Positions 4,987-19,946 of a stretch of 29,205 nucleotides of DNA are shown piece by piece. The stretch lies in the NCBI GenBank assembly GCA_021683455.1, contig GCA_021683455.1_3051.3. One strand, written 5' to 3'. The stretch's first letter is position 1; every line of letters begins with the position of its first letter. The notes under the pieces were generated by a model. It worked only from the letters and a program-made list of their open reading frames with translations, ran no database searches and was not told where the DNA came from. A program made the translations under genes and the position numbers. Source of the DNA: a phage.

Positions 4987-5946
4987 ATGATTACCGTAAA
5001 TGAAAAAGAACACATTCTTGAACAGAAATATCGTCCATCTACTATCGATGAATGTATTCTTCCCGCCTTTGATAAAGAAACCTTTAAATCTATTACAAGT
5101 AAAGGTAAGATTCCACATATTATTCTTCATTCTCCTTCTCCAGGAACAGGTAAAACAACTGTAGCAAAAGCATTGTGTCATGATGTAAATGCTGATATGA
5201 TGTTTGTGAATGGATCAGATTGTAAAATTGATTTCGTTCGCGGTCCTTTGACTAATTTTGCCAGCGCCGCTTCATTTGACGGTCGTCAAAAAGTAATCGT
5301 TATTGATGAATTTGACCGTTCAGGATTAGCAGAGTCTCAGCGACATCTTCGTTCATTTATGGAAGCTTATAGTTCGAACTGTAGTATTATTATTACTGCT
5401 AACAATATTGATGGTATTATTAAACCGCTTCAGTCACGCTGCCGAGTTATTACGTTCGGTCAACCGACCGATGAAGATAAAATTGAAATGATGAAGCAGA
5501 TGATTCGTCGATTGACTGAAATCTGTAAACATGAAGGTATTGCTATAGCTGATATGAAAGTTGTAGCAGCTTTGGTTAAAAAGAATTTTCCTGATTTTCG
5601 TAAAACTATTGGCGAGCTCGATAGTTATTCATCTAAAGGTGTTTTGGATGCTGGTATTTTATCACTGGTTACTAACGATCGTGGTGCTATTGATGATGTT
5701 CTTGAGTCTCTCAAAAATAAAGATGTTAAACAACTCAGAGCTTTAGCACCAAAATATGCAGCCGATTATTCGTGGTTCGTGGGTAAACTTGCCGAAGAAA
5801 TCTATTCACGTGTAACTCCACAGAGTATTATTCGTATGTACGAAATTGTCGGCGAAAATAATCAGTATCATGGTATTGCAGCTAATACTGAATTGCATCT
5901 AGTTTATCTTTTCATTCAGTTAGCATGTGAAATGCAGTGGAAGTGA
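4987..5946 (+). CDS. 44: Clamp loader large subunit gp44 (AAA+ ATPase)
   Basis: 319 aa from ATG 4987 (GAGGAA SD); Walker [11 protein letters not shown], Walker [12 protein letters not shown] motif LQSRCRV. The ORF-track start at 4972 is an upstream in-frame extension. Confidence 0.9.
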
Positions 5947-16276: not shown

Positions 16277-16570
16277 ATGAAAAAATTTATTTTTGCTACA
16301 ATTTTTACTTTGGCTTCTTGTGCTGCTCAGCCTGCTATGGCAGGTTATGATAAAGATTTGTGTGAATGGTCTATGACTGCAGATCAGACTGAAGTTGAAA
16401 CTCAAATTGAAGCGGATATTATGAATATTGTTGAGCGCGATCGTCCTGAAATGAAAGCTGAAGTGCAAAAACAACTTAAGTCTGGCGGTGTAATGCAGTA
16501 TAATTATGTTCTGTATTGCGATAAAAACTTTAATAACAAAGATATCGTAACCGAAATCACAGGTGAATAA
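16277..16570 (+). CDS. sp: Spackle-like periplasmic protein (superinfection exclusion / lysozyme inhibitor)
   Basis: 97 aa with a cleavable signal peptide (MKKFIFATIFTLASCAAQPAMA); length and position match T4 sp (61.3). Confidence 0.6.
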   Translation: MKKFIFATIFTLASCAAQPAMAGYDKDLCEWSMTADQTEVETQIEADIMNIVERDRPEMKAEVQKQLKSGGVMQYNYVLYCDKNFNNKDIVTEITGE

Positions 16571-16571
16571 T

Positions 16572-17204
16572 ATGATTTATTATATGCACAAAAATCCACC
16601 GTTTAAATACGGTAAATTTCCTGGTGCACAATGTTATAATATAACGCCTGATGAAAATAACCGTGGATATCTTATTGGCACAATTTTTGTAATTGTTAAA
16701 GATAACGAAATCGTTGCCTGGGCAGATTTTAAAGGTACAACATATGATGTTAATCCGGTGCCTTTCACATATTACAATTTAATGGATTTGGCATACGATT
16801 ATAATTGGTTTAATCATGACACGTTGGCTCATATTGAAGGTGTAGGATTTGACATCTCTTATTCTAGCTACTCATTGTGTCCTATGAGTCGGGCTCATAA
16901 AGAACCTGAATATTTTTCATTTAGGAAACGTGTAAACTTTAAACGCAACACAGAGCATGTCGGTGGAATCTTTGTTAAAGATAATCGAATTACTCGCATT
17001 ATTTATCCTTTGGGCTGTGGTCAAAAAGATATTGATGTTGATTTAGACTTTACTGAAAACATCATTAATCATATTGCTTCTGTGTATTTTGGTATCGATC
17101 ACAAAATTGTAATATGTGGATATGAATTACCGTTTGAAGAACAGTCTAAAGTAAATGTTTCTATTGACGATCAAATTTTTAATGCTTTTATGAATAAAGG
17201 TTAA
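16572..17204 (+). CDS. Hypothetical protein (position of T4 61.2); C-terminal tail shared with the next ORF
   Basis: 210 aa from ATG 16572; ends ...SIDDQIFNAFMNKG. Confidence 0.55.
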   Translation: MIYYMHKNPPFKYGKFPGAQCYNITPDENNRGYLIGTIFVIVKDNEIVAWADFKGTTYDVNPVPFTYYNLMDLAYDYNWFNHDTLAHIEGVGFDISYSSYSLCPMSRAHKEPEYFSFRKRVNFKRNTEHVGGIFVKDNRITRIIYPLGCGQKDIDVDLDFTENIINHIASVYFGIDHKIVICGYELPFEEQSKVNVSIDDQIFNAFMNKG

Positions 17205-17208
17205 TATG
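17160..17208 (+). repeat. Direct repeat copy 1 (3' end of the 61.2-position ORF plus stop/start junction)
   Basis: About 46/49 nt identical to 17518..17566, including CAAATTTTTAATGCTTTTATGAATA and GGTTAATATG. Confidence 0.7.
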
Positions 17209-17562
17209 TATAGTTCTGAATTTTCATATTTAAAAATGGAAAAAATTTCATACGATTTTATAGATGAAAAGGTTTATTACAGTTTCCATGAACCACGTTT
17301 TAATAGTGAGGTTGGGTTTATTGTAGTAAAAGACAATTTCATTTTAAAGATATATTCGGCATTAAAGGATTTTCACTACGAAAATATTAACCTAAAATTT
17401 GATAAAGAAAACGTTCGTAATTGCGCAGTAACAATTACAGGAAATAAAGGCACATGTGTTATGCTATCTGATGAAATTAATGATTTGCTAAATGATGCCG
17501 AAAAGGTTGCTATTCCATCTATTGATGACCAAATTTTTAATGCTTTTATGAATAGAGGTTAA
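17206..17562 (+). CDS. Hypothetical protein (position of T4 61.1); C-terminal tail shared with the previous ORF
   Basis: 118 aa; ends ...SIDDQIFNAFMNRG. Confidence 0.55.
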   Translation: MYSSEFSYLKMEKISYDFIDEKVYYSFHEPRFNSEVGFIVVKDNFILKIYSALKDFHYENINLKFDKENVRNCAVTITGNKGTCVMLSDEINDLLNDAEKVAIPSIDDQIFNAFMNRG

Positions 17563-17566: not shown

Positions 17567-17728
17567 AAAACATATAAAGAATTTATTAAAGAAGATATGG
17601 TAGCTGGAGATTCAGGTGGTAATCCTGAAAATATCTCTACTGGAACAACGTCGGGCGCTGTAGTAAATAAAGGTCCTGAACAGATTCCTAAAAAGAAAAA
17701 AGAGGAATCTAAAGAAAAAGAAGAGTAA
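17564..17728 (+). CDS. Small hypothetical protein (54 aa), Lys/Glu-rich C-terminus
   Basis: ATG 2 nt after the preceding stop; stop 2 nt before the gene 61 ATG; below the ORF-track cutoff. Confidence 0.35.
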   Translation: MKTYKEFIKEDMVAGDSGGNPENISTGTTSGAVVNKGPEQIPKKKKEESKEKEE

Positions 17729-17730
17729 AA

Positions 17731-18759
17731 ATGTCATCAATATCTTGGATTGATAATGAGTTTGCATATCGTGCATTAGCTCATTTACCTAAATTCACAC
17801 AAGTAAATAATAGTTCAACTTTTAAATTACGGTTTAGATGCCCTGTTTGTGGAGATTCAAAAACCGACCAGAATAAAGCCCGTGGATGGTATTACGGTGA
17901 TAATAATGAAGGAAATATTCATTGTTATAACTGTAACTATCATGCACCAATCGGAATATATTTAAAGGAGTTTGAACCTGATTTATATCGTGAGTATATC
18001 TTTGAAATAAGAAAAGAAAAAGGTAAAAGCCGTCCAGTAGAAAAACCTAAAGAACTTCCTAAACAACCTGAGAAGAAAATAATTAAATCTCTTCCGTCAT
18101 GTGTTAGATTAGATAAACTGGTGGAAGACCATCCAATTATAAAATATGTAAAAGCTCGTTGTATTCCAAAGGATAAATGGAAATATCTTTGGTTTACAAC
18201 CGAATGGCCTAAATTAGTTAATAGCATAGTACCGGGAACATATAAAAAGGAAATTTCTGAGCCTCGTCTTGTTATTCCAATTTATAATGCTAATGGAAAA
18301 GCCGAGTCGTTTCAAGGGCGTGCATTAAAGAAAGATGCTCCTCAAAAATATATCACCATTAAAGCTTATCCTGAGGCAACAAAAATATATGGAGTCGAAC
18401 GAGTTAAAGATGGTGATGTATATGTTCTAGAAGGACCTATAGATTCACTTTTTATTGAAAATGGTATAGCTATTACGGGTGGTCAATTAGACCTAGAAGT
18501 TGTTCCATTTAAAGATAGACGAGTGTGGGTTTTAGATAATGAACCTCGTCACCCTGACACTATCAAACGAATGACTAAATTAGTTGATGCAGGAGAAAGG
18601 GTTATGTTTTGGGATAAATCTCCCTGGAAATCAAAAGATGTCAATGATATGATTAGAAAGGAAGGTGCAACCCCTGAACAAATTATGGAATATATGAAAA
18701 ATAATATTGCCCAGGGGTTAATGGCTAAAATGCGGTTATCTAAATATGCTAAGATTTAA
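17731..18759 (+). CDS. 61: DNA primase gp61
   Basis: 342 aa; N-terminal zinc-ribbon cysteines (CPVCGDS ... CYNCNYH); TOPRIM-like EGPIDS and DNEPR motifs. Confidence 0.9.
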   Translation: MSSISWIDNEFAYRALAHLPKFTQVNNSSTFKLRFRCPVCGDSKTDQNKARGWYYGDNNEGNIHCYNCNYHAPIGIYLKEFEPDLYREYIFEIRKEKGKSRPVEKPKELPKQPEKKIIKSLPSCVRLDKLVEDHPIIKYVKARCIPKDKWKYLWFTTEWPKLVNSIVPGTYKKEISEPRLVIPIYNANGKAESFQGRALKKDAPQKYITIKAYPEATKIYGVERVKDGDVYVLEGPIDSLFIENGIAITGGQLDLEVVPFKDRRVWVLDNEPRHPDTIKRMTKLVDAGERVMFWDKSPWKSKDVNDMIRKEGATPEQIMEYMKNNIAQGLMAKMRLSKYAKI

Positions 18760-18956
18760 ATTAACCCAACTAAAGCAAATGCTAAATCTACAAATGTATC
18801 AAGAGTAACTACTGGAATATTAATACCATGCGCAATTGCAACAGGTGATAGAATAAAGTTCCAGAGTAAAATTCCTACCATAGCAGAAATAGTAAAAGCT
18901 ATACGTTTCTTATTACCTTTGATGGCATTAACAAGTGCCATTAATTTTTGTACCAT
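18756..18956 (-). CDS. Small hydrophobic membrane protein encoded antisense to the early gene block
   Basis: 66 aa; on the minus strand a strong SD (AAGGAGG) lies 4 nt upstream of the ATG; stop overlaps the gene 61 stop (TTAA, convergent). The only minus-strand ORF with a credible ribosome-binding site. Confidence 0.5.
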   Translation of the reverse strand: MVQKLMALVNAIKGNKKRIAFTISAMVGILLWNFILSPVAIAHGINIPVVTLDTFVDLAFALVGLI

Positions 18957-18968
18957 ATGTCCTCCTTA

Positions 18969-18993
18969 TTGCTTTATATATTTATTGTATAAT
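18969..18993 (+). promoter_or_regulatory. MotA-dependent middle-type promoter upstream of gene 56
   Basis: MotA box TTGCTTTA (18969..18976), 11-nt spacer, TATAAT (18988..18993). Confidence 0.5.
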
Positions 18994-19027
18994 TAATCTA
19001 CTAACCCATGAATTGAAAGGAAAAATA

Positions 19028-19546
19028 ATGGCTTACTTTAACGAATGTGCTCATTTGATCGAAGGTGTTGATAAAGCAAATCGTGCATATGCTGAGAATA
19101 TTATGCACAATATTGACCCACTGCAGGTTATGCTTGATATGCAGCGGCATTTACAGATTCGTTTGGCTAATGATAAACCAGAAACAAATCGTCATCCTGA
19201 TTCACTTGAAACTGCAGGAGAAGTTCTTGCTTGGCTGCGAAACCAAGACGATTATATCGCAGATGAAACTCGCGAACTATATACTTCTCTTGGTGGTATG
19301 AGTAATGGTGAAAAAGAAGCTTCTGCTGTATGGAAACCTTGGAAGAAACGTTATTCTGAAATGCAATCCAAGAAAATTCAAGATTTATCTCCCGAAGATC
19401 AGCTTGAAATTAAATTTGAACTGATTGACCAATTTCACTTTTTCATGAATAAATTTATTGCTCTTGGAATGTCAGCTGAAGAAATCTTTAAACTTTATTA
19501 CCTGAAAAATGCTGAAAACTTCGCTCGTCAAGACCGAGGTTATTAA
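19028..19546 (+). CDS. 56: dCTP pyrophosphatase gp56 (MazG-like)
   Basis: 172 aa from ATG 19028 (GAAAGGAAA SD); MazG-type motif LETAGEV; N-terminus MAYFNECAHLIEGVDKA resembles T4 gp56. The ORF-track start at 18935 is an upstream extension through the promoter. Confidence 0.85.
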   Translation: MAYFNECAHLIEGVDKANRAYAENIMHNIDPLQVMLDMQRHLQIRLANDKPETNRHPDSLETAGEVLAWLRNQDDYIADETRELYTSLGGMSNGEKEASAVWKPWKKRYSEMQSKKIQDLSPEDQLEIKFELIDQFHFFMNKFIALGMSAEEIFKLYYLKNAENFARQDRGY

Positions 19547-19740: not shown

Positions 19741-19946
19741 AATTTGATTTCTACGCGTGGCAAAAAGCCGGGAGACCGGCTACTCGAGCATTTGGTTCTG
19801 ATGGATATAATATTAGAGCTCATTGGAAATTTAATGCTCCAGAAGATTATTCTCCGGTAATTATTAACGGTGATGTTGTTATATTAACTAAAATCGGATA
19901 TTTTAACGTTCCGCGAGAATTTATTATAAATAATTATGTAATTTAA
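19737..19946 (+). CDS. Small hypothetical protein (soc.1-like position)
   Basis: 69 aa; ATGA overlap with the upstream ORF. Confidence 0.5.
   Translation: MKFDFYAWQKAGRPATRAFGSDGYNIRAHWKFNAPEDYSPVIINGDVVILTKIGYFNVPREFIINNYVI
19925..19932 (+). promoter_or_regulatory. T4 late promoter upstream of soc
   Basis: Exact TATAAATA, about 30 nt upstream of the soc ATG; the only exact match I found in the window. Confidence 0.5.

Follow-up and report, generated by a model that had tools for sequence, protein, structure and literature searches.

A conserved minus-strand gene between genes 61 and 56 of T-even phages is predicted to encode a small late membrane protein

The window analysed here, a stretch of 29,205 nucleotides, comes from a Tequatrovirus and is 98.8% identical to phage MLF4. 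Gene 61, which encodes DNA primase, lies on the plus strand at 17731..18759, and gene 56, the dCTPase/dUTPase gene, follows on the same strand at 19028..19546. Between the two, an ORF of 66 codons runs on the minus strand at 18756..18956, with its ATG at 18954-18956. It is convergent with gene 61, and its stop (18756-18758) overlaps the TAA of that gene (18757-18759) in a shared TTAA; gene 56 is its divergent neighbour, at an ATG-to-ATG distance of 71 nt. A Shine-Dalgarno sequence, AAGGAGG (18961..18967, minus strand), precedes the start codon with the 4-nt spacer ACAT. This heptamer occurs a single time on both strands of the 29 kb window, and the ORF has the strongest ribosome-binding site found there. 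The remaining minus-strand ORFs of at least 60 aa are each nested inside a plus-strand gene, and the 66-aa ORF is the only gene on the minus strand within the window. On all of these points (the position and strand of the ORF, its strong Shine-Dalgarno sequence, the overlapping stops and the plus-strand location of every other credible gene) the preliminary description of this DNA proved correct. Given that the window holds 86 ORFs of at least 60 aa, the length of the ORF alone is within chance; its intergenic position, unique Shine-Dalgarno sequence, late-promoter box and conservation, combined, are beyond it.

The ORF is not a new discovery. Hundreds of T4-like genomes already carry it under the label "hypothetical protein", and it belongs to a PHROG family: a profile search against phage protein families, as the preliminary description had proposed, matched the 66-aa protein to PHROG 2024 with E = 1.4e-31 (residues 2-66 against profile positions 1-65 of 65), and the distant members P0077-P0079 match the same family at E = 3e-21 to 3e-14. 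T4T dam.1 (ADJ39749), RB69ORF029w (NP_861719), bas37_0144 and MLF4 gp218 are the same gene, sharing its length, strand, slot and overlap with the primase stop and showing no material difference; each is annotated as "hypothetical protein", with no function assigned. In the reference T4 record, NC_000866, the ORF is left unannotated, and it is the T4T record that names it "dam.1". No mention of "dam.1" or "ORF029w" was found in the literature searched, and Petrov et al. 2010 mention T4T but not the 66-aa ORF.

The ORF had also been described as lying where no dam-like gene is present, at the locus that holds the dam methyltransferase gene in T4. The absence is confirmed: T4 Dam used as a tblastn query finds no homologue in the window (best E = 6.3), and T4 has 919 bp (dam plus flanks) in place of the window's 40 bp at 18968-19007. 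A connection between the ORF and the missing gene does not hold, since T4 has both side by side. Its copy of the ORF directly adjoins dam and is 97% identical to the window ORF, which rules out the ORF as a substitute for dam. The dam-less arrangement is common to at least 40 Tequatrovirus records, these being the best-matching ones; the nucleotide matching merges pieces up to 1100 bp apart, so that a dam insertion would leave a match unsplit, and the 80%-coverage count is unsuited to estimating the number of dam-less phages. The dam-less locus is an ordinary polymorphism. With respect to T4, gene 56 of the window is only about 76% identical and gene 61 about 97%.

When the 66-aa protein was searched by tblastn, 693 phage records matched, 687 of them near full length. 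Full-length homologues occupy this slot in at least seven genera of the Tevenvirinae: as a lone opposite-strand gene between 56 and 61, the ORF is found in Tequatrovirus, Mosigvirus, Gaprivervirus, Dhakavirus, Jiaodavirus, Kanagawavirus and Gelderlandvirus as well as in metagenomic T4-like phages, and it is absent from the 56-61 junction of Krischvirus RB49. In DK-13, Bp7 and the metagenomic relative L028, other genes separate it from gene 61; the gene keeps its one opposite-strand place between 56 and 61 even where its flanking genes come and go. Among 1.84 billion representative proteins, a profile search returned only seven sequences at E <= 0.001. Each of those examined proved T4-like and syntenic, and there is therefore no outside context from which a function could be borrowed. 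Orthologues within Tequatrovirus share 90-100% identity, and those of Mosigvirus and Gaprivervirus are 45-57% identical to them; dN/dS ranges from 0.07 to 0.22 in Tequatrovirus, from 0.10 to 0.13 in Mosigvirus and from 0.24 to 0.68 in Gaprivervirus. Between genera, synonymous sites are saturated, yet the length of the ORF and its motifs are retained. The preliminary description had held that frameshifts or stops in close relatives would speak against the ORF; the frame instead stays open. These comparisons indicate that the protein is under purifying selection and that the minus-strand ORF is real, a genuine accessory gene belonging to the T-even phages (subfamily Tevenvirinae).

Upstream of the Shine-Dalgarno sequence, on the minus strand, is a putative gp55-type late-promoter -10 box, AATAAATA (18979..18986), located 22 nt 5' of the ATG. 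It matches the consensus TATAAATA at seven of eight positions, with A at -13, a substitution that is the commonest natural variant of the late -10 box (9/50 T4 late promoters; PMC2988020). No -35 element accompanies this TATAAATA-type box, which is the sequence pattern of late, gp55-dependent genes. The ATAAATA core is present in three copies in the window, where 19 +/- 4 are expected; the copy discussed here begins 23 nt from the ATG, and a second one belongs to the soc promoter. Among the lineages compared, NATAAATA recurs 20-41 nt 5' of the ATG in 11 of 12, despite diverged flanks and against a background of 1.6e-4 per position, in genomes that avoid the motif elsewhere; Melville is the one lineage from which the box is absent. 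The match is 7/8 in most lineages, the distance of 41 nt comes from one relative, and the GGAGG or GGAG core of the Shine-Dalgarno sequence is present in every lineage compared. The transcription start is predicted near 18973 on the minus strand, which would give a leader of about 17 nt. For the T4 counterpart (NC_000866; ORF 17738..17938, plus strand, with the box GATAAATA at 17709-17716), the predicted 5' end is at about 17722; 150 T4 TSSs are reported in a T4 NAD-cap/dRNA-seq preprint. On this comparative evidence the gene falls in the late class, and the ORF is apparently expressed late. Because the late-promoter box is conserved upstream of it, the opposite orientation of the ORF is the plain T4 late-strand orientation, with a putative late promoter of its own; "antisense" means no more than this.

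The plus strand of the same region carries two further elements. As the preliminary description had it, a MotA-type middle promoter lies upstream of gene 56: a consensus match extends over 18967..18993, with the MotA box TATTGCTTTA at 18967-18976, an 11-nt spacer and the -10 sequence TATAAT at 18988-18993. This match overlaps the late -10 box on the opposite strand, and its equivalent is annotated as "predicted middle promoter" in phage fPS-90. The other element is a terminator-like hairpin with a T-run (18919..18949), 3' of gene 61 on the early strand and within codons 3-13 of the small ORF. It folds at -11 to -16 kcal/mol in the window and T4, and a terminator is annotated in fPS-90. The hairpin is absent outside Tequatrovirus; for this reason it does not define the gene, and it was rejected as the cause of conservation at the 5' end of the ORF.

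The product is a small, hydrophobic protein of membrane type, as had been proposed. Its N-terminus has a net charge of +5 and an amphipathic stretch, and two hydrophobic stretches follow, with Kyte-Doolittle means of about 2.0 and about 1.9 (the second covers residues 47-66, at 1.86); the earlier picture of a basic amphipathic N-terminus followed by hydrophobic segments is thus upheld, and a membrane location is predicted and almost certain. An AlphaFold2 model (mean pLDDT 79) has helices at residues 2-14, 16-42 and 52-63. Column conservation across 76 unique sequences identifies Trp32, Asn33, Pro38, Gly44 and Pro48 as invariant or near-invariant. The C-terminal 24 residues, HGINIPVVTLDTFVDLAFALVGLI, are hydrophobic, carry a net charge of -2 and have no basic residue, the protein ending in ...ALVGLI. 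Charge distribution was compared across eight lineages, and the topology predicted from composition is N-in/C-out, comprising a basic cytoplasmic N-terminus, one transmembrane helix (residues ~19-42) and the acidic 24-residue tail; the stretch 47-66 could instead be a second membrane span. Searches of Pfam, NCBIfam and PADLOC with the 66-aa protein and distant family members gave nothing informative. The family profile produced a sole chance match among PDB sequences (E = 3.2), and Foldseek of the AlphaFold2 model returned no matches in PDB and family members only in BFVD.

The sole phenotype on record comes from a close relative, Bas37, whose copy of the gene is dispensable under laboratory conditions. 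That copy, bas37_0144, is 201 nt long, on the same strand, and overlaps the primase gene by 4 nt (bioRxiv 10.1101/2025.11.20.689424, supplement). In Tn-seq, 20 of its 24 TA sites were hit and it was classed as Non-essential, and the Bas37 genes reported as conditionally essential on five clinical isolates or against Mokosh do not include it (bioRxiv 10.1101/2025.11.20.689424). On CFT073 and CFE299 it showed no significant change, the two comparisons giving log2 fold changes of +0.33 and +0.20, with an adjusted p = 1 (bioRxiv 10.1101/2025.11.20.689424).

Several other explanations of the locus were weighed against this evidence. The ORF could be a chance, untranslated frame in a conserved regulatory spacer made of a terminator and promoters; ORFs of such length are common by chance in this AT-rich window, and the early-strand hairpin, like the promoter of gene 56, falls inside or beside this one. 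The frame, however, is open at 45-57% amino-acid identity and also at greater distances, where synonymous sites are saturated. Its dN/dS lies well below 1, the hairpin is confined to Tequatrovirus whereas the ORF extends further, and the Shine-Dalgarno sequence is unique. The comparative data effectively refute this reading, which we regard as scarcely credible. Nor do they favour the convergent-transcription cassette that had been suggested, in which coding would be secondary and late transcription would run antisense into gene 61, lowering primase late in infection, or would disturb the middle promoter of gene 56. We found no intrinsic minus-strand terminator within 3.7 kb downstream, the late -10 box sits in the spacer of the gene 56 middle promoter in this window, and several T4 sites are known at which transcription of the two DNA strands takes place at different times (PMC2988020). 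Against a primary role of this kind, the amino-acid sequence is under purifying selection and neither target is conserved: it is other genes that adjoin the ORF on the gene 61 side in DK-13, Bp7 and L028, and T4, with dam and a different upstream sequence, lacks the promoter overlap. Such a role is therefore very unlikely, although an incidental effect of this sort may arise in some phages. A counter-defence or exclusion factor, required only against competing phages or where the host carries a particular membrane-associated defence, would suit an accessory gene whose distribution is limited to one subfamily, whose slot is hypervariable and which is dispensable on K-12. Counter-defence and exclusion genes are mostly early, and a late promoter would be unusual for one. 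Many T4 accessory genes of this kind have proved to be anti-defence genes (bioRxiv 10.1101/2025.11.20.689424). On the other hand, bas37_0144 was not conditionally essential on the five clinical isolates or against Mokosh, its fold changes in the two comparisons given above were slight, and no PADLOC match was found; we consider this role unlikely.

The suggestion that the protein is holin- or toxin-like is not supported. A holin, pinholin or antiholin-type lysis protein, forming or gating membrane lesions at the end of infection, would be small, hydrophobic and probably late, as this product is, and at least one transmembrane helix is predicted both by hydropathy and in the AlphaFold2 model. 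A few records label homologues "holin" or "putative holin" (the UniRef name for OE5505; KP1079), and one distant member weakly matches the holin family phrog_11161 (E = 0.012). These labels, however, have the look of names assigned automatically to a small membrane protein. No holin family of Pfam or NCBIfam is matched, no lysis gene adjoins (the neighbours are replication and nucleotide-metabolism genes), the Bas37 orthologue tolerates transposons, and the charged region is N-terminal, with no hydrophilic charged C-terminal domain. T4, moreover, already has holin T, the antiholins RI and RIII, and spanins. Class II/III holins and pinholins (S21 68, T7 gp17.5) resemble the protein in having 60-70 aa, one or two hydrophobic helices and late expression, as predicted here, and differ from it in their charged C-terminal cytoplasmic tail, holin HMM match and lysis-cassette context, and in the dispensability of the present gene's orthologue. 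The T4 antiholin RI, which is encoded apart from the other lysis genes and expressed late, is likewise a small envelope protein of T-even phages, in which a membrane segment at the N-terminus is followed by a short periplasmic portion, a topology that is predicted for the 66-aa protein. There is no sequence similarity, and in RI a signal-anchor domain that can be released is joined to a folded periplasmic domain, ~70 residues long, which binds holin T, whereas the 66-aa protein is predicted to have only the 24-residue tail and a long basic cytoplasmic N-terminus. A holin-type identity is thus quite improbable; an accessory, non-essential lysis modulator is counted under our main explanation instead. 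As for a type I toxin, Ldr_toxin was hit by one homologue only, with an E value of 0.1 and a score of 13 bits where the cutoff is 27. Toxins such as Hok, Ldr and TisB are controlled by an antisense RNA, and an Rfam search of 18300-19400 found no RNA family. Finally, the first 42 residues could be a cleavable Sec signal peptide, the product then being a secreted or released hydrophobic, acidic peptide of 24 residues (HGINIPVVTLDTFVDLAFALVGLI). The n-region is basic, Pro38 would be at -5, in Tequatrovirus and Gaprivervirus the A-I-A before H43 places small residues at -3/-1, 74 of the 76 unique sequences have A, T or S at position 42, and Gly44 is invariant. Yet the hydrophobic core, at 18-24 residues, is longer than a cleaved signal usually has (h-region 7-15) and of the kind seen in signal anchors; position -3 is Leu in Mosigvirus, and position -1 is Thr in several genera. 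We hold cleavage to be unlikely.

We conclude that this accessory gene, dispensable in the laboratory, probably has a late product, an N-in/C-out inner-membrane protein of 66 residues that would act by intramembrane binding, plausibly in a late envelope role. According to this explanation, RNA polymerase modified by gp55/gp33/gp45 would transcribe the gene late into a short-leader message, whose translation would yield the membrane protein and place its acidic, amphipathic tail in the periplasm or at the interface. The conserved Trp32, Asn33, Pro38, Gly44 and Pro48 would lie close together in the turn and in the helix's outer half. An Asn that is buried and invariant classically drives helix-helix association in membranes; together with the location of the conserved residues, it makes intramembrane binding the most likely mode of action. 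MgrB, AcrZ and T4 Imm, which bind larger membrane proteins, offer a parallel, each being a single short hydrophobic protein with conserved residues within the membrane helix, and such residues point to helix-helix recognition here as well; none of them is homologous to the 66-aa protein, and Imm, unlike it, is an early gene product with two membrane spans. Late in infection, the protein may bind itself or another phage or host envelope protein within the membrane and thereby modulate an envelope event, plausibly lysis timing, lysis inhibition or late exclusion.

The more specific proposal, that an unstudied late protein binds an envelope partner through its Asn-containing transmembrane helix and so tunes lysis timing, lysis inhibition or late exclusion, is put forward tentatively, as a rather speculative one. 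If it is true, and lysis timing or the envelope turns out to be the target of the product, a new component would be added to a classic phage system that is among the best studied. Meanwhile, owing to its omission from NC_000866 and from the annotations based on that record, gene-level tables of T4 transcriptomics, proteomics and Tn-seq skip a gene that is conserved in at least seven genera of the Tevenvirinae.

The phage is a Tequatrovirus, presented in the reverse of the T4 GenBank orientation; over 1.2 kb around the small ORF it shares 98.8% identity with Escherichia phage MLF4 and 97.8-98% with RB3 and RB5-RB10. The ORF (18756..18956, minus strand, 66 residues) is preceded by a Shine-Dalgarno sequence, AAGGAGG (18961-18967, minus strand), which is the sole copy in the window with both strands counted; the spacer ACAT separates it from the ATG. 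Its stop codon (18756-18758, minus strand) overlaps that of primase gene 61 (TAA, 18757-18759) within TTAA, and all other minus-strand ORFs of at least 60 aa found in a scan of the window fall inside plus-strand genes. The window holds 86 ORFs of at least 60 aa, and the length of this one is not significant by itself; unlike length alone, its features taken together are. The preliminary description had reported the ORF, its Shine-Dalgarno spacing, the stop overlap and the lone minus-strand position, and the sequence bears out every detail. The MotA-type promoter it proposed for gene 56 (ATG at 19028) is likewise seen as a MotA-box/-10 consensus match at 18967-18993 (plus strand), whose counterpart in fPS-90 carries the annotation 'predicted middle promoter', and no Dam or SegF homologue was found in the window, in agreement with the missing dam-like gene.

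The small ORF is a real, conserved gene whose product was already on record as hypothetical (dam.1, RB69ORF029w, PHROG 2024). The profile search against phage proteins that had been proposed matches it to PHROG 2024, a function-unassigned family, at E = 1.4e-31. It is annotated as hypothetical protein gp218 in the MLF4 record, called dam.1 in the independently sequenced T4T record and listed as RB69ORF029w in RB69, while a Kanagawavirus record contains it unannotated. By tblastn it is found in 693 phage records, near full length in 687, with 90-100% identity among Tequatrovirus copies and 45-57% in Mosigvirus and Gaprivervirus. More distant relatives of 61-69 residues, which also match PHROG 2024, were recovered when a profile was run against 1.84 billion representative proteins.

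In all genomes inspected (Tequatrovirus, Mosigvirus, Gaprivervirus, Dhakavirus, Jiaodavirus, Kanagawavirus, Gelderlandvirus and three metagenomic T4-like phages), it is the sole opposite-strand gene between 56 and 61. The flanking genes change between phages, and the small ORF is intact throughout: toward 56, T4 has dam, fPS-90 a homing endonuclease, and Bas37, PEi20 and the metagenomic relative L028 additional small genes; toward 61, DK-13 and Bp7 carry a homing endonuclease and L028 a gene of 124 aa. The small ORF is missing from Krischvirus RB49, which falls outside the subfamily and has 14 nt between 56 and 61. By the Nei-Gojobori method most Tequatrovirus pairs have a dN/dS of 0.07-0.22, the opposite of the poor conservation named beforehand as evidence against a gene; the values are 0.10-0.13 for Mosigvirus and 0.24-0.68 for Gaprivervirus. 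Synonymous sites are saturated in comparisons between genera, yet length and motifs are kept. The low dN/dS and this persistence exclude both a chance ORF and a purely regulatory spacer.

Both sides of the small ORF form an insertion hot spot, occupied by dam, GIY-YIG/HNH homing endonucleases or small ORFs depending on the phage. T4 and the window align at 97% identity across gene 61 and the small ORF, ending 11 nt upstream of its ATG (window 18967); beyond this point T4 has 919 bp (leader, dam and dam promoter region) versus 40 bp in the window, so that dam is an indel on the small ORF's promoter side. In gene 56 the alignment to T4 picks up again, at only ~76% identity. The mosaic boundary at 18967/19008 is sharp, with gene 61 and the small ORF at ~97% and gene 56 (19028..19546) at ~76% to T4. 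Among the best 40 nucleotide matches to the window, only primase, hypothetical protein and dCTPase lie under the match. A link between the ORF and the missing dam, with the former replacing the latter, is unsupported, as T4 and Bas37 carry both; the absence of dam is an ordinary polymorphism, uninformative about the small ORF.

Upstream of the small ORF, a putative late -10 box, AATAAATA, lies at 18979-18986 (minus strand), 22 nt from the ATG. The T4 late-promoter consensus is TATAAATA; 32 of the 50 listed T4 late promoters are perfect and 9 of 50 have A at -13, and late transcripts of both polarities are possible (PMC2988020). AATAAATA is exactly the A(-13) variant. The 7-mer ATAAATA occurs three times on the two strands of the window against 19 +/- 4 expected, a roughly six-fold under-representation that fits selection against stray late promoters. 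One copy is that of the small ORF (18979-18985, minus strand); another (19926-19932, plus strand) belongs to the only perfect TATAAATA in the 29 kb, at 19925-19932, 30 nt upstream of the soc ATG; the third (17000-17006, minus strand) is antisense within the 61.2-like gene. Despite changing alignable upstream sequence, NATAAATA is found 20-41 nt upstream of the small ORF ATG in 11 of 12 lineages (background in the compared loci, 1.6e-4 per position); Bp7 has a perfect TATAAATA, and Melville only ATTAAATA. A search of the upstream minus strand turned up no sigma-70-like promoter. We infer from these sequence features that the small ORF is served by a late, gp55-dependent promoter, which would start transcription near 18973 and give a leader of ~17 nt carrying the Shine-Dalgarno sequence.

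The antisense box inside the 61.2-like gene (16563..17204), GATAAATA at 17000-17007 (minus strand), is kept at the equivalent place in T4 (5830-5837 in our numbering of the T4 locus, L002) and in MLF4. No plausible minus-strand ORF follows it, since an ATG overlaps the box; it may be an antisense late promoter. The 61.2-like gene and the adjacent ORF at 17206..17562 (both plus strand) each end in SIDDQIFNAFMN(K/R)G. Relative to T4, the window has a ~310-nt extra segment in this 61.1/61.2 region, where 49 nt of T4 matches twice and Bas37 has a 357-nt gene; the arrangement suggests either a tandem paralogue or a mosaic junction.

Eight divergent lineages share one protein architecture: a polar N-terminal region of 14-23 residues (net +1 to +5) with Lys/Arg right before the hydrophobic core, a hydrophobic helix of ~24 residues, and a C-terminal tail of 22-25 residues (net 0 to -2) containing an amphipathic 11-mer. 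The N-terminal region of the window protein has a net charge of +5 and an amphipathic stretch. Across 76 unique sequences Trp32 and Gly44 never vary, substitutions at Asn33, Pro38 and Pro48 are rare, and position 34 is aromatic in 75 (F in 71, Y in 4). An AlphaFold2 model from an 18-sequence alignment (mean pLDDT 79) places helices at 2-14, 16-42 and 52-63. As modelled, the last of these is not long enough to cross a bilayer, although the hydropathy of the last hydrophobic stretch (1.86) would allow a second span. The positive-inside rule most favours a single-pass, N-in/C-out topology, which would leave a short tail in the periplasm or at the membrane interface. A P-x-A-x-(A/S/T) pattern ahead of Gly44 resembles a signal-peptidase site, and cleavage there is a minor alternative. 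For the single-pass protein, the invariant Asn in mid-membrane beside Trp suggests helix-helix association, with itself or a partner, since such residues are established as mediating it in membrane proteins.

The preliminary description had also raised holin-like, toxin-like and regulatory convergent-transcription readings. A 'holin' label does appear on scattered homologue records, with no profile match behind it; holins typically have a charged C-terminal domain and a lysis context, whereas the small ORF protein lacks the former and is encoded away from the latter. The toxin-like reading is unsupported. The protein matched nothing in Pfam, NCBIfam or PADLOC, and nothing in the PDB by sequence or fold; a BFVD fold search returned family members only, and Rfam gave no match at the locus. 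As for a regulatory cassette, no minus-strand intrinsic terminator was found downstream of the small ORF, and late transcripts hence probably run antisense into gene 61. This run-through cannot be the conserved function, because the downstream gene varies by phage. The late -10 box also sits within the spacer of the divergent gene 56 middle promoter in the window (18967-18993) and fPS-90, not in T4; two temporally distinct polymerase forms would compete over these shared 27 bp. On the early strand, a terminator-like hairpin with a T-run (18919..18949, plus strand) lies downstream of gene 61 in codons 3-13 of the small ORF, so that one stretch of bases both encodes the conserved N-terminal helix and may act as a terminator; T4 has the hairpin, the fPS-90 record annotates it as a terminator, and outside Tequatrovirus it is missing.

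The Bas37 orthologue, bas37_0144 (201 nt, plus strand, overlapping the primase gene by 4 nt), is classed Non-essential by HIDEN-SEQ, with transposons at 20 of 24 TA sites, compared with 1 of 27 for the essential dCTPase gene (bioRxiv 10.1101/2025.11.20.689424). In the two host comparisons available to us its log2 changes are +0.33 and +0.20 (adjusted p = 1 in both). The study does not report bas37_0144 among the conditionally essential Bas37 genes.

The main practical point is that a conserved gene is missing from the reference T4 annotation. The T4 copy (NC_000866 17738..17938, plus strand; 4239..4439 in L002) is 97% identical and lies within the 309-bp dam-61 gap, without annotation in the RefSeq record; the T4D annotation used in the 2025 HIDEN-SEQ study omits it too, giving no gene-level T4 value. 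Because both annotations omit it, gene-level T4 datasets have no entry for it. Of the original interpretation, the real gene and the small membrane protein stand, and the holin, toxin, dam-replacement and regulatory-cassette readings do not. Taken together, our results support a late-expressed, small inner-membrane accessory protein that is Tevenvirinae-specific and dispensable in the laboratory. Our best guess at its role, held with low confidence, is that late in infection it would bind an envelope protein within the membrane.
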